A stretch of DNA of 64,000 nt from Eledone cirrhosa (lineage: Eukaryota), in the NCBI GenBank assembly GCA_964016885.1, contig OZ024740.1:163432001-163496000 (forward strand). Direction: 5' to 3'. This document shows, piece after piece, positions 14,551-41,620 of this stretch (the first letter of the stretch is position 1; each line of letters begins with the position of its first letter). The translations under genes were made by a program, and so were the position numbers. The notes below the pieces were generated by a model. It saw nothing but the letters and a program-made list of their open reading frames with translations. It was not told the DNA's origin and made no database searches.

Positions 14551-16442
14551 TTAGGAGTTGGTCCTTCGAAACAGCATTTGTAATGTTTCCTCGGAGCATA
14601 AGTTACACGGACGGTATCCTCCTGTGTAAGAGTTAGCTCTGGACAGTAAGCTCCAAATGAGATTGTAGGTTATATTATTATCTTTGAGGTCCCAGATGTG
14701 GCCCGAAAGTGTAGTGGCATGTCGCCGGGCCGGGTTTCGGAGAGTATGTCGGTGTTGGTAGAGCCGGGTCTTGAAGTCACAAGCGGTTAATCCTATATAA
14801 GCTTTGTTGGAGGTGTCCCTCTTCACGTTGCACTGGTAGATCACGTTACGTTCTAGGCATCTGTTGTTGAGGGGGCACGTAGATCTATCAGGGCAGTTAC
14901 ACCTCCTGGTCTGCTCTCCACTGATGTCCAGGTTGTTTCTTCCATAGGGGTTGAGTTTTTTGTTGTTTAAGGAGATGATGTTTTGTGCGAAGTTAGGTGT
15001 GGTGCTGTAGGAGAGTTTGATGGTGTTTTTGTTGATTATGTTGTGGTAGCGGTGTTGTAATGGGAAGTGTTTTTCGAGGAGCCTAAAGAAGGTTTTCCCG
15101 ATAGGTGTTGTCACCTCGGCATTATGGGGAGGATTGAACCACGTTACGCTGCGTGAGCGACGTGTCGCCTGCTGGTTCCGCTAAGGGAAGCTGGATAAAA
15201 GGATATTTCCTCCTGGAAGCCACCCCACTTGAGGGCCTGGTTGTAATGAGGCGCATGTTCGTCGAATATCTGCTCATTAGCGGACAAACGAGATATGCGG
15301 AGGGAGATGTTTTTAACCAGGTTATTGGTAATGTTTCTAGGATGGTTAGAGCGGCGGTGGATGTAGTGCAGTTTGTCGTTTGGTTTCCTGTATGGGTAGT
15401 ACAGATAATTTTCGAGGTTAAGGGTAACGTCCAGGAAATTGACTCGAGTTAGGGACGTTTGTAGGGTGATTTTAAATCCCCAGTCCCGGAAGAAGTTGAT
15501 TAGTTGTTTACGGACCTGGTCTGTACTACTGAGGTTGTACCCTTTGAGGATGAGGGCCCCATCATCTCGGTACAATCCACCGCCCAATGCAGGAAACATT
15601 TCGGTGAGTTTAATTAGTAAGAATAATCCTATAAGATCTGTGACCTCAGCCGAATCCGTCGCGCCCATACTGACATCGAAGGGGGAGTCGGGAGTTCTCT
15701 TTATCCACTTGGTGTTGTCGAAAAGTAGGACTGTCTTCCTGGCGTGGAGAATGATATTCTTTCCTGGTCAGTGATAGGCGTGAGTGTTTCGGCAAAGTCC
15801 AAGGTGGCCGTAAGGAGCGGTAAGGTAATAGATGCATAGTAACACTCTCTGTCAAACTGGATGAATTTTGTGTCTCGTTTGTCATCCATATTCCTGAACC
15901 ATGAGATTACTTCTTGGGTGCTGACCCATATGCTAAGTCTCGCGTTTTGCTTAACTTTTGGTATAACGCGGTCTAGGATTTTTTTTACTGAATCTCCCTA
16001 TGTCCGACTTCGTTTGGTTTATAAGCCTGATGGATGGTTTGCGGTCGAAGTCGGATTTGTGGTCCTTCAGTGTGAAGTAGGGAGTCCATGAGTCTAGGGG
16101 TTCAGTGCGGTCGGTGACCCCGAGGCTGGAGGTAATTTGTTGTCCATCTCGATTTATGTCCTTGATAATTGAATGGTTAGCCTTTTTATAGGTGGAGTTT
16201 TGGCTGCTCCTGATCCGTGTGTGGTATCTGTCAGGGTTGACGAAGTAGCGGTTTCCAGTTTTGTCCGAGTACACCATGATGTTGTTGGTGTTTTCATACT
16301 CTGTTATTTTGCTACGGAGTTGTTGTGGGAATCTGTTGTGTCTGGGTTTGAATTTAATACTCTTGACCAGGTGGAAAAGGTCGTCCTCGAAGGGTGAGAG
16401 CATAGGGTTCGGAGGTGGAGATTTGTAGGTATTGAATCTGAA

Positions 16443-16446
<4 letters not shown>
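14551..16446 (-). pseudogene. PLE reverse transcriptase plus GIY-YIG endonuclease, frameshifted
   Basis: ORF pieces 15951-16446, 15701-15889, 15144-15668 (MGATDSAE..GLYRDDG..VNFLDVTL..SNHP) and 14551-15114 (CNC..CPL..NVIYQC..AYIGLT..FKTR..CNLC). Confidence 0.92.
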
Positions 16447-16516
<70 letters not shown>

Positions 16517-36643: not shown

Positions 36644-37051
36644 CCACTGTGCATATTCAGAAAAGTTATATTTTCCTCACTAAGTAAGGAAATTAAATTT
36701 TCAGTGAAATAAATTCCTTATTTCTTAAAAGTATCTCCCCTTTACTTTACCTCGTATTGAAACAAGCATCGATGCTAACAGCGATTTCATTGAGTAGATG
36801 TGACAAATATCTCAAGATTATTCATGCCAATCCTTTTACAAATAAAACTACTCTTTCATGTCTTATGTATCTTTTACTAAATTCATGCAAATGTCCTCAA
36901 AGAACTGAACAGCCCTGTGTGAATATACATACATACATACATACATACATACATACATACATACATACATACATACATACATACATACATACATACATAC
37001 ATACATACATACATACATACATACATACATACATACATACATACATCATCA

Positions 37052-37089
37052 CGAGCTGAGGATCCGCTAAGGTGAAACAATTGTTCTCG
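37052..37089 (+). ncRNA. Minimal hammerhead motif
   Basis: CGAG-CTGAGGA-TCCGCTAAGGT-GAAA-CAATTG-TT-CTCG; stem I CGAG/CTCG; palindromic stem III ACAATTGT. Confidence 0.7.
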
Positions 37090-37187
37090 GTATGGTGAAC
37101 TAACAGTTGTGTAACCACTTCTACCTAACTCGTCCAATGGACTGAGTGTTCTACCACTACGGATATTACCTTCCAGTGTTCTACCAC

Positions 37188-37240
<53 letters not shown>

Positions 37241-37247
<7 letters not shown>

Positions 37248-38772
37248 AATATAGACATAGAATATTCGAAAATATTCTGTATGTTTATAATAAACATTTT
37301 GAAGACCTAATCGCTATAGAATAGAATACGTCACGTATTACAATTAGATTCTCGATAAAAGCAAGGGAAGTAAGTCTACGCGTTTCATTCTTGTTAGAAT
37401 TCATCAGGACTACATATCCAGTGCTTTTATCGAGAATGACACAGCTAGAGACTTATAGAATACTTAGCTGTGTACAGGAACTGGTTTGAAAGAGCGGTTG
37501 CCGGTCCGGCAGAAATTAGAAATTGGAATAAATGCTCTGAAATAGCGATATATATGTGAATATAGACATAGAATATTCGAAAATATTCTGTATGTTTATA
37601 ATAAACATTTTGAAGACCTAATCGCTATAGAATAGAATACGTCACGTATTACAATTAGATTCTCGATAAAAGCAAGGGAAGTAAGTCTACGCGTTTCATT
37701 CTTGTTAGAATTCATCAGGACTACATATCCAGTGCTTTTATCGAGAATGACACAGCTAGAGACTTATAGAATACTTAGCTGTGTACAGGAACTGGTTTGA
37801 AAGAGCGGTTGCCGGTCCGGCAGAAATTAGAAATTGGAATAAATGCTCTGAAATAGCGATATATATGTGAATATAGACATAGAATATTCGAAAATATTCT
37901 GTATGTTTATAATAAACATTTTGAAGACCTAATCGCTATAGAATAGAATACGTCACGTATTACAATTAGATTCTCGATAAAAGCAAGGGAAGTAAGTCTA
38001 CGCGTTTCATTCTTGTTAGAATTCATCAGGACTACATATCCAGTGCTTTTATCGAGAATGACACAGCTAGAGACTTATAGAATACTTAGCTGTGTACAGG
38101 AACTGGTTTGAAAGAGCGGTTGCCGGTCCGGCAGAAATTAGAAATTGGAATAAATGCTCTGAAATAGCGATATATATGTGAATATAGACATAGAATATTC
38201 GAAAATATTCTGTATGTTTATAATAAACATTTTGAAGACCTAATCGCTATAGAATAGAATACGTCACGTATTACAATTAGATTCTCGATAAAAGCAAGGG
38301 AAGTAAGTCTACGCGTTTCATTCTTGTTAGAATTCATCAGGACTACATATCCAGTGCTTTTATCGAGAAAGACACAGCTAGAGACTTATAGAATACTTAG
38401 CTGTGTACAGGAACTGGTTTGAAAGAGCGGTTGCCGGTCCGGCAGAAATTAGAAATTGGAATAAATGCTCTGAAATAGCGATATATATGTGAATATAGAC
38501 ATAGAATATTCGAAAATATTCTGTATGTTTATAATAAACATTTTGAAGACCTAATCGCTATAGAATAGAATACGTCACGTATTACAATTAGATTCTCGAT
38601 AAAAGCAAGGGAAGTAAGTCTACGCGTTTCATTCTTGTTAGAATTCATCAGGACTACATATCCAGTGCTTTTATCGAGAATGACACAGCTAGAGACTTAT
38701 AGAATACTTAGCTGTGTACAGGAACTGGTTTGAAAGAGCGGTTGCCGGTCCGGCAGAAATTAGAAATTGGAA
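37241..38772 (-). repeat. Tandem array of 311-bp HHR-containing monomers (about 4.9 copies), retrozyme-like
   Basis: Unit starts at 37241, 37552, 37863, 38174 and 38485; copies essentially identical (one substitution noticed at 38370); HHR on minus strand at 37370-37413, 37681-37724, 37992-38035, 38303-38346 and 38614-38657. Confidence 0.95.
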
Positions 38773-39355
38773 CAGTTCCTGTACACAGCTAAGTATTCTA
38801 TAAGTCTCTAGCTGTGTCATTCTCGATAAAAGCACTGGATATGTAGTCCTGATGAATTCTAACAAGAATGAAACGCGTAGACTTACTTCCCTTGCTTTTA
38901 TCGAGAATCTAATTGTAATACGTGACGTATTCTATTCTATAGCGATTAGGTCTTCAAAATGTTTATTATAAACATACAGAATATTTTCGAATATTCTATG
39001 TCTATATTCACATATATATCGCTATTTCAGAGCATTTATTCCAATTTCTAATTTCTGCCGGACCGGCAACCGCTCTTTCAAACCAGTTCCTGTACACAGC
39101 TAAGTATTCTATAAGTCTCTAGCTGTGTCATTCTCGATAAAAGCACTGGATATGTAGTCCTGATGAATTCTAACAAGAATGAAACGCGTAGACTTACTTC
39201 CCTTGCTTTTATCGAGAATCTAATTGTAATACGTGACGTATTCTATTCTATAGCGATTAGGTCTTCAAAATGTTTATTATAAACATACAGAATATTTTCG
39301 AATATTCTATGTCTATATTCACATATATATCGCTATTTCAGAGCATTTATTCCAA

Positions 39356-39363
<8 letters not shown>
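38773..39363 (+). repeat. Inverted block of the same 311-bp monomer (about 1.9 copies)
   Basis: Reverse complement of the left block starting from 38727; 45-bp non-palindromic spacer 38728-38772; ends in (TA)n. Confidence 0.95.
38843..38886 (+). ncRNA. Minimal type I hammerhead ribozyme of the 311-bp monomer (also 39154-39197)
   Basis: GTAGTC-CTGATGA-ATTCT AACA AGAAT-GAAA-CGC-GTA-GACTTAC; complete canonical core; palindromic ACGCGT stem III; predicted cleavage after 38879 and 39190. Confidence 0.9.
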
Positions 39364-39395
<32 letters not shown>

Positions 39396-39525
39396 GGAAG
39401 CAGAACATTGGTTATTGGAATCCAGTTCGTGGTTAAGATAGCCAGTTTCATGGACGGTTTCAACGTACGGTTAGGGGTAACTCCACAATTTTGTAAGAAT
39501 TCCGTTCAATCTTGGAGTATAATTT

Positions 39526-41620
39526 CTCCTAGTTAAGAACCTAAATAACCAGAGCATAGAAAGACTGCGTAAGAATATTAGAAAGACTCTCGGAAAACTA
39601 GGCCTTAGCATAACGTATGAATATAGCACTAAAATAGTTAACTTTCTAGACACGACGCTTAACCTAAATACGGGACATATAAGACCTTTTCACAAGATTA
39701 ATGAAAACATAACATACATCAACTGTAATTCGAACCACCCACTATACATAATTAAATCCGTTCCACGCAGCATATCCCTTAGGATCTCCCGCCTCTCGTC
39801 TAACCGACAAATCTTCGAGGAACATGCAGAGTACTACAATACCGCACTAGACAGGGCAGACACTTAGATAGAGTGGAATATACAGATGAGGGCCTCCGCA
39901 AAGCACACACGAACAGGCATAACACTAACTCCAGAAACACACGCCCACACGCATTTACGCATAGAACTACAAATTATACTATAAATAGAAATACAACATC
40001 GAAATCAAACAGGTCATGCAGTAGAAAATATATTTGATATAACCCCATATTTAACACCTCTATTAGTACTAACCTACCCTCTACGTTCTTTAGAATAATA
40101 AATAAGCACTTTCCAGATTCACATAGATACAGCAAAATCCTTAACACTAAATCTATTAGACTATCTTACTCCACGGCACCAAACATAGAGGCACACATTA
40201 AGATGCTTAACGCTAAAAAGATGCGTAACAACACCAGAACACAAATTTATAACAATAACAATACAATCACTATTTAACACAACACAATATCTAATACACA
40301 ACCACCCACTAATAGGCAAACAAAACGTAACACATTTGTGCAGGCATCGCAGCCCACCAATAATGCCAAAGTTGCCCATGACAAGAATTGTAATTGCCAC
40401 CTACCTCAAACCTGTCCATTACATAATAAATGTATGCAGTCTAACCTGGTTTACCAATGCACAATAGAATCAGACAGCCAGAAATGGTATTACATCGGAG
40501 CGACTGGGAATACATTTAAAGCTCGTTGGTATACACATCATTACGCAATGAAACATTCCCAGCATCATTATGTAACTACCCGCCGAGGTTGACTTTGCCT
40601 TTCATCCTTACGGGGTCGATAAAATAAAGTACCAGTAATGCACTGGGTAATTGCTGGCCTTGTGCCAAAAGTAGAAACAATTATGTAACTACCCTTGCAA
40701 ACAAGACCTGGCAACTGAGGGAAAGTAACCATCAATACACCCTGAACTGGAAAACATTATCGAACGTGCCCCCATATCGGAGTGGTATGAGAAGCTGTCG
40801 ATTATGTGACCTTGAGCTGTTCCACATTTTGAGTTCGAAGAATAAGTTACTCAACAATAAAATCGAAAGATCAATTTATTGTAACCATAGACTCAAAGAA
40901 AAGTTTTCGCACTACAAGTGCAAATCGAACACTTAACCTCTTACTACCACCTGACAAACTGCATATACTTAGACTTTCTACCCTCCTATTGTATCTAACC
41001 CCTTTAAGTACCCACAAAAACCAATACCTATATCCCTCCTTTCTCCTTCATTCCTTTTCTATTTCTTTTCTTCTCCCCCTTCTTTATTTTTATTTTTATT
41101 TTTTATATATATATATTTATCTCTCTATCTCTCCTCCTTCTCTCACTCTCTCTTTCTCATTCTCTCTCTCTCCATCCCTCCCACTATAAACAATTTAATT
41201 CCCTTTAACTCACTACACCGTAAATCGACGACATGAAGTCTACGTATCAAAACTAATCGAGGAATCCTTCCACCTCTACTCCTCCCTCTATCTCAGTTTG
41301 TCACTCTACTTTCTAATTCTTCTCCCCCTTCCTCTCTCTCTATACTACTCCGTTTGTCCCTCCACTTTCTAATTCCTCTTCCTCTCTCTCTATACTAGTA
41401 AATACAGTTCCAAAAAAATCTTTCTCTATATATTAAGAACTTTTCAAGAGTAACTTATTCACTATTTTCAAAATGTGGACGTGAACAACAATTATTATTG
41501 AGTGGCTGGTATTTGCAGTATAGCAATATAAGGTTGCACTTACCAATGAAACGGTCGTAAATACCTGGATAAAATCCTTTTTTTAATGCTTACCTGTGTT
41601 TTCTCGTTTATACTATATAT
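39526..41620 (+). mobile_element. 5'-truncated Penelope-like element (RT C-terminus, GIY-YIG, 3' UTR)
   Basis: IVNFLDTTLNL..NSNHP..SISLRISRLS; CNCHLPQTCPLHNKC..NLVYQC..YYIGATGNTFKARW; CRLC; coding part ends near 40935; pyrimidine-rich UTR. Confidence 0.88.
40582..40679 (+). mobile_element. 5'-truncated SINE inserted in the GIY-YIG region
   Basis: 15-bp TSD ATTATGTAACTACCC (40567-40581, 40680-40694). Confidence 0.9.

Follow-up and report, generated by a model that had tools for sequence, protein, structure and literature searches.

A 311-nt hammerhead repeat of Eledone cirrhosa forms inverted tandem arrays best explained by Penelope-like double priming on a likely circular RNA

Metazoan non-LTR retrozymes consist of AT-rich tandem units of 170-400 nt, each with a type I hammerhead and no open reading frame, and they occur alongside Penelope-like elements (PLEs); their RNA circles have been demonstrated (PMC7229834; bioRxiv 10.64898/2026.07.22.740005). 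Priming on circular RNA with synthesis of tandem cDNA by a PLE reverse transcriptase (RT), and the partnership with PLEs itself, are proposed in the main text of one study as hypotheses (PMC7229834), while another supports the PLE origin and calls the mechanism of mobilisation open (bioRxiv 10.64898/2026.07.22.740005). PLE insertions are described as carrying partial tandems, an inverted 5'-truncated copy at the head, joined head to head, a 30-40-bp tail at one end and 8-10-bp target duplications, often at (TA)n (bioRxiv 10.1101/2021.04.23.441226, PMC3846280). Purified PLE cuts and extends both strands in vitro from two RT start sites on the RNA, which delimit the tail and need no homology to the cut DNA, and its main substrate in those assays is unprocessed RNA (PMC11167929). 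The origin of the tandem or inverted ends and of the tail is called undefined in the PLE papers (bioRxiv 10.1101/2021.04.23.441226, PMC3846280, PMC11167929). In L1, priming by both target strands yields inverted arms, and 'dual priming' by two RNAs has been proposed (PMC2837659).

The array found in the window, the 64,000-nt stretch of Eledone cirrhosa DNA analysed here, is a single insertion of a 311-nt repeat that carries a type I hammerhead and, judged by its motifs, is a non-LTR retrozyme. Monomer positions are numbered from the first base past the predicted cut (GAAACGCGTA^). Arm A occupies 37237..38772 on the minus strand, its ribozyme sense, and comprises 4.94 units (1536 nt, with one mismatch) running from monomer 160 to 140, with hammerhead cores starting at 38651, 38340, 38029, 37718 and 37407. 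Its 3' end, at site A, is fused to the left (TA)n target tract (37191..37236) and can be placed anywhere within 37237-37245 because the monomer's ATATATAT tract merges with genomic (TA)n. Arm B (38773..39363, plus strand; 1.9 units, 591 nt) runs from monomer 205 to 173, with cores starting at 38849 and 39160, and its 3' end at site B is fused to the right (TA)n tract (39364..39390). The two 5'-truncated arms meet head to head at 38772..38773 (monomer 160/205) in a blunt joint without microhomology. Both 3' ends point outwards, neither lies at the cleavage site, and one outer end only bears a 'tail' (39322..39363, plus strand), which is monomer 132-173, the segment between priming sites A and B. 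An array of this kind, inversion included, is far beyond chance, and the RT plus GIY-YIG reading frame of an autonomous PLE is absent from it. The original prediction had set the limits of the two blocks correctly, together with an overlap of 14 nt (monomer 160-173, present at the inner start of the left block and at the outer end of the right block), and its placement of the 3' end at the ATATATAT tract joined to genomic (TA)n, off the cleavage site, holds within the range given for Arm A.

The minimal hammerhead motif, predicted from sequence and fold at 38843..38886 on the plus strand with a cut after 38879, combines stem I, CUGAUGA, a 5-bp stem II, GAAA and a palindromic ACGCGU stem III, and its core and stems are found in 7/7 copies of the window array. 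No Rfam family matches the monomer at gathering score, the best being a sub-threshold HH9 (17.8 bits vs 52), so the hammerhead is assigned by motif only. The monomer folds better than shuffled sequences (z -2.9), is 34% GC and tandem, and has no LTR and no coding frame of note. It thereby shares with metazoan non-LTR retrozymes the size range, AT-rich tandem units, one type I hammerhead in each, absence of an ORF and accompanying PLEs; the published circles have been demonstrated, whereas for the present family, known here from DNA, no RNA data set is listed as containing the repeat (PMC7229834; bioRxiv 10.64898/2026.07.22.740005).

The family is abundant, with 16,727 exact genome-wide matches to an internal monomer 22-mer and 1,144 to the window's hammerhead variant. 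At site A, end patterns match 533 and 1,197 times, though one subfamily inflates the latter count; at site B there are 765 matches in the forward direction. Arrays were collected by exact patterns in the first 186 Mb of contig C1, eight through an internal motif and the others through an A or B end; one sister-family array (L071.0) and one for which the wrong side had been fetched (L093.0) were left out before counting, and an assembly duplicate (L058.1; L058 is duplicated across an assembly gap) was kept in the end census and excluded from variant analyses. The resulting 110 separate arrays on one contig comprise 96 with two arms, every one of them head to head, and 14 with a single arm. Two of the two-armed arrays have one end out of view, and all of the remaining 94 pair one A end with one B end (49 AB, 45 BA, 0 AA, 0 BB). 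Site A ends fall at monomer 122-140 with a mode at 131 (54/94) and site B ends at 156-173 with a mode at 166 (60/94), giving a modal tail of 35 nt, from 131 to 166, at one end only. Because the census picked arrays by their ends, an end-independent control was run on 18 arrays found through the internal 22-mer (0-36 Mb; five of them new): 14 were two-armed with A/B ends and four single-armed (one at an N gap), and 32/32 outer ends were A or B. Flanks are (TA)n-like at 200/206 ends, a figure partly built into the selection by ends, and one array (L143) is flanked by plain AT-rich DNA. The original claim that the insertion was retrotransposed with both outer ends primed in (TA)n holds. Its corollary that arrays do not end at the cleavage site extends to the family, since tabulated 3' ends lie within 10 nt of the ribozyme cut in 0/202 cases and the cut site fused to (TA)n has no match genome-wide. 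Arms of at least 2 units are the majority (143/184), reaching about 27 units per arm; Arm A is longer in 43/92 arrays and Arm B in 49/92, and therefore neither arm is a copy of the other.

Taken with the published PLE insertions and reactions, these ends indicate that PLE-type double priming very probably produced the arrays. Both share an inverted 5'-truncated copy, a 30-40-nt tail at one end, a (TA)n target, duplications and two bounding start sites; unlike the PLE insertions described in those sources, the cargo here is non-coding, a monomer of which each of the two arms can contain up to about 27 copies, and inversion is the rule (96/110). The same two-ended plan recurs in this genome in a PLE family (tail about 130 nt), in a second hammerhead repeat (65 nt) and in a sister retrozyme. 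Within the monomer, site A matches (TA)n best (9/10), in line with the original proposal of (TA)n microhomology priming at both ends; site B matches at 5-6/10, at odds with that proposal for the second end, and 59 monomer positions reach at least 6/10. As site B is not the best (TA)n match, it is likely set by the enzyme.

The array's right-hand (TA)n tract is shared with an older, frameshifted, head-to-head PLE at 39391..41619 (inverted head 39391-39522, main arm on the plus strand), whose family has two fixed ends about 130 nt apart (here the long end at 39391 and the short end at 41619), 41,387 first-look candidates in the genome and open frames of up to 768 aa. Pfam left the PLE pieces and two long PLE frames unnamed; we take both to be PLE from their RT core, CxCx5C and YYIG motifs and architecture. 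This family was rejected as a partner, its tail being about 130 nt long and its alignment scoring 44.5 against 44.3 for shuffled sequence, and judged from sequence, the flanking PLE is probably not the one that mobilised the array. Neither the 28 loci compared from one PLE family nor the other fetched flanks yielded an autonomous PLE with the tail of the array, and the genome contains further PLE families beyond the one compared. A second, more distant PLE fragment lies at window 14572-16448, with 35-44% identity to the frame at L167. To the left of the array, 37047..37190 (plus strand) is the 3' end of a different repeat family, which also carries a hammerhead and whose 3' ends are fixed at two points 65 nt apart (37123 and about 37188). 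This repeat is high-copy, forms short head-to-head arms, occurs also at L124, L084, L079 and L108, and is possibly the terminal repeat of another PLE. The sister family (L071:466-773, L098:3068-3568) is 73-80% identical over the tail region, has A/B-type ends and a hammerhead-like core reading UUGAUAA instead of CUGAUGA, and further hammerhead-like cores lie in the window at 1307, 1516, 6607 and 36605.

The original prediction had read the 14-nt overlap as an L1 twin-priming signature, in which a second primer anneals by microhomology to one long RNA near the stop of the first cDNA. Under L1 twin priming, the outer end of the inverted arm is in register with the start of the direct arm. The census does not bear this out: 10/94 arrays are in L1 register within 15 nt vs 9.4 expected (p=0.46), and the window's overlap is a chance meeting of fixed end B with a random inner start. 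Three arrays have an offset of exactly +1 and, with the window's overlap, fit the L1 scheme, as does an excess in reverse register within 10 nt (12/94, p=0.02 uncorrected), which is one of eight tests, falls to 13/94 within 15 nt (p=0.14) and is gone at 15-30 nt. Against it, the second site is fixed at 156-173 rather than opportunistic, and site B matches (TA)n poorly. Inner 5' ends scatter round the monomer while both outer ends stay fixed, so un-inverting the right block, which had been expected to restore a near-continuous multimer, does not do so in general; random inversion breakpoints, named beforehand as evidence against L1 twin priming, are what is found. The scatter departs somewhat from uniformity, with Kuiper p=0.007 in arm A and 0.49 in arm B, the excess falling at 14-130, away from site B and the cut. 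The arrays share with L1 twin or dual priming the use of both target strands as primers to give inverted arms, and differ in the absence of poly(A), a second site that is fixed and not internal or opportunistic, and inner ends out of register (PMC2837659). We regard the L1-type explanation as highly improbable and retain PLE-type double priming.

The inner joints resemble repair-type joining of two cDNA ends. In the 71/96 joints that are free of inserts, 44/71 overlap by at least 2 nt, vs 18% by chance (p=3e-16); 23/96 carry inserts of 1-60 nt, and among these 8/9 inserts of at least 5 nt are mostly templated from the monomer; 2/96 have larger inserts. Foreign sequence is captured between the arms in L052 (272 nt) and L123 (54 nt). 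Two inner joints recur in separate insertions, one at 251/14-22 in L035, L045 and L071, at a 16-bp monomer stem, and one at 168/257 in L032 and L077. Dispersal by retrotransposition with target duplications, as in retrozymes, is seen in the 110 separate insertions and in strict 9-11-bp duplications at 5/110 loci vs 0.75 shuffled, most flanks being uninformative; this strict criterion replaced a looser test that discriminated poorly (28 vs 19 shuffled). Such duplications together with outward 3' ends point to a staggered cut with 3' overhangs. That the inversions are instead chimeric-read or assembly artefacts is suggested by the duplication of L058 across an assembly gap and by the listed records of public runs X1, X2, X13 and X24, none of which bridges 38772/38773, but an artefact would not produce A/B ends, target duplications or templated inserts. 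Moreover, X1 and X3 contigs, at a depth of about 12-35, and raw Illumina reads from X22 contain 13 further head-to-head joints, which are scattered in position and overlap by 0-5 nt. Because public contigs and raw Illumina reads contain such joints, the architecture is not a long-read chimera, and we give an artefact next to no weight; the window insertion itself may be missing from the individuals behind X1, X2, X13 and X24.

The original prediction also held that the geometry implies a circular template. By its geometry, an array does not distinguish a circular template from a long linear one, so that part of the claim falls, but the circle survives as the best reading, for which unit variants argue. 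Among two-armed arrays (1390 units), counting pairs with at least 4 copies and at least 2 carriers, 117/131 array-by-substitution pairs are fixed in every unit of both arms. Fixed changes seen in one array only include 89A>T (25/25), 120T>G (18/18) and 217A>G (18/18), and 98 arrays hold 42 haplotypes. Across 93,304 bases shared between arms there are 3 in-register mirrored events and 67 unmirrored deviations. At the cut, 4/206 5' ends fall within 3 nt vs 4.6 expected, and deviations number 12/1012 passes vs 1-19 per ~1000 elsewhere. Fixed variants, few mirrored events and no pile-up at the cut thus indicate that each insertion was made mostly from one monomer read repeatedly without a stop. 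We consider it likely that a circular monomer is the main template, the closed circle fitting the variants best. Of the 117 fixed pairs, many mark lineages and could have been inherited from homogeneous source arrays; as roughly a twentieth of the units were seen, unsampled homogeneous sources may explain fixed variants. The mirror test is less powerful if single-unit changes post-date insertion.

The same PLE double priming might usually act on RNA transcribed from an existing array, either linear and uncleaved or circular and multimeric. This accounts equally well for the geometry, agrees with the unprocessed RNA that is the main PLE substrate in vitro (PMC11167929), and fits a mosaic 46A>G in L052 and a 7-unit periodicity in L051. 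It also fits the three mirrored events, namely a two-haplotype switch mirrored in register in both arms of L111 and single-unit variants mirrored between the arms of L067 and L099; these show that multimeric templates or coupled switches occur, since a pure monomer circle would not yield them. As the usual template, a multimer without a monomer step cannot fix a new change in up to 38/38 units, and A>G pairs are 19 fixed vs 3 mosaic. The 3 mirrored events, moreover, are fewer than the 17-33 expected had the sources borne between half and the whole of the present load (Poisson p 4e-5 to 2e-11); an expectation of only 8 would give p=0.04. We therefore judge a usually multimeric template unlikely. 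Less likely still is a cleaved linear monomer, its ends held by hammerhead stem I, with a telomerase-related RT jumping the gap precisely in each round; it would yield the same monomer bottleneck, and lineage-level indels close to a fixed site occur only at positions 2-3, beside the cut, but neither 5' ends nor errors show an excess there.

Alternatively, unequal crossover and conversion might have expanded and homogenised short PLE-type insertions in place, or the arrays might derive from DNA circles; one retrozyme text leans towards local amplification of tandem arrays (bioRxiv 10.64898/2026.07.22.740005). Variants repeated within one arm (L048, L051, L052) are compatible with it, and an unmirrored switch at position 277 in L060 could be conversion. 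Three observations speak the other way: both inverted arms are multimeric, sharing variants to their ends; the arrays are very young, with 603/687 full units identical to their own array's modal unit; and the strand-biased A>G changes point to an RNA step. We hold such local growth to be very improbable, and a circular monomer remains the preferred template. In L060 (G000:C1:61292800-61297600), the four outer units of arm B have A at position 277, whereas its two inner units and 7/7 units of arm A have G, a pattern that could reflect editing, a template swap during synthesis or later conversion.

The fixed changes lean towards A>G on the sense strand. A spanning haplotype network, which replaced an earlier hand count (20 vs 5), gives 15 A>G vs 4 T>C (p=0.003), and by distinct sites the lean is 10 vs 5 (p=0.08, not significant). 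Single-unit changes lean the opposite way (T>C 22 vs A>G 8, p=0.03, a strand bias that is only suggestive), and the two classes differ (Fisher p=5e-4). A>G at 21, 260 and 277 recurs on 4, 3 and 5 backgrounds, respectively, and each of these sites follows a U within a predicted stem; A-to-I editing is expected at a paired A after U. Whether RNA editing was written into array DNA is, on this pattern, about evenly balanced. At a loose end behind window 38771, run X13 has a contig in which the monomer's antisense strand shows about ten A>G changes within 30 nt, a cluster that resembles hyper-edited double-stranded RNA and whose motif is absent from assembly G000.

As a whole, the arrays are best explained by PLE double priming in (TA)n on a likely circular 311-nt retrozyme monomer, an account we hold to be reasonably probable. 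The transcript would self-cleave, as predicted from its hammerhead, and ligate to a circle, and a Penelope-like RT/endonuclease would make a staggered double cut in (TA)n that leaves 3' overhangs. Both cut ends would then prime at two fixed RNA sites about 35 nt apart, and the circular monomer RNA would likely be copied many times. The two independent cDNAs would stop at random, and host microhomology-mediated repair would join their ends. A-to-I editing of the circle may be the source of recurrent A>G changes, and a minority of insertions likely derive from multimeric templates or template switches. Conversion of a short RNA to a head-to-tail concatemer by an RT reportedly occurs also in DRT2, a bacterial defence that uses programmed template jumps and involves no genomic integration; the likeness is limited to concatemer synthesis from a short RNA, the arrays here being integrated in the genome.

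The repeat is a new addition to the non-LTR retrozymes, and the circle and PLE models for such repeats were already published as hypotheses. Searches of the two retrozyme texts turned up no arms joined head to head, no pair of fixed ends, no tail and no variants fixed across arms (PMC7229834; bioRxiv 10.64898/2026.07.22.740005), and in the mostly open-access literature searched no earlier report described retrozymes with inverted arms of PLE type, a tail or edits fixed arm-wide; supplementary Fig. S9 of one study (PMC7229834) may bear on novelty. The findings join two open questions, how PLE ends and tails form and whether retrozyme circles template genomic arrays. Both can be tested directly in this family, which is young, numbers its units in thousands and has two priming sites precise to the base, inner ends that are free and variants fixed across whole arrays; the substrate RNA (310 nt), its priming positions (131-140, 166) and the product to expect are defined. 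The findings also argue that arrays are born full length and not grown like satellites. More tentatively, each array may be the DNA record of one circular RNA, with a PLE dimer priming both ends, both enzymes rolling round the same circle and its edits appearing in every unit. If that is true, the inverted head and tail of PLEs would arise from symmetric double priming, and RNA editing would partly drive the evolution of retrozymes.
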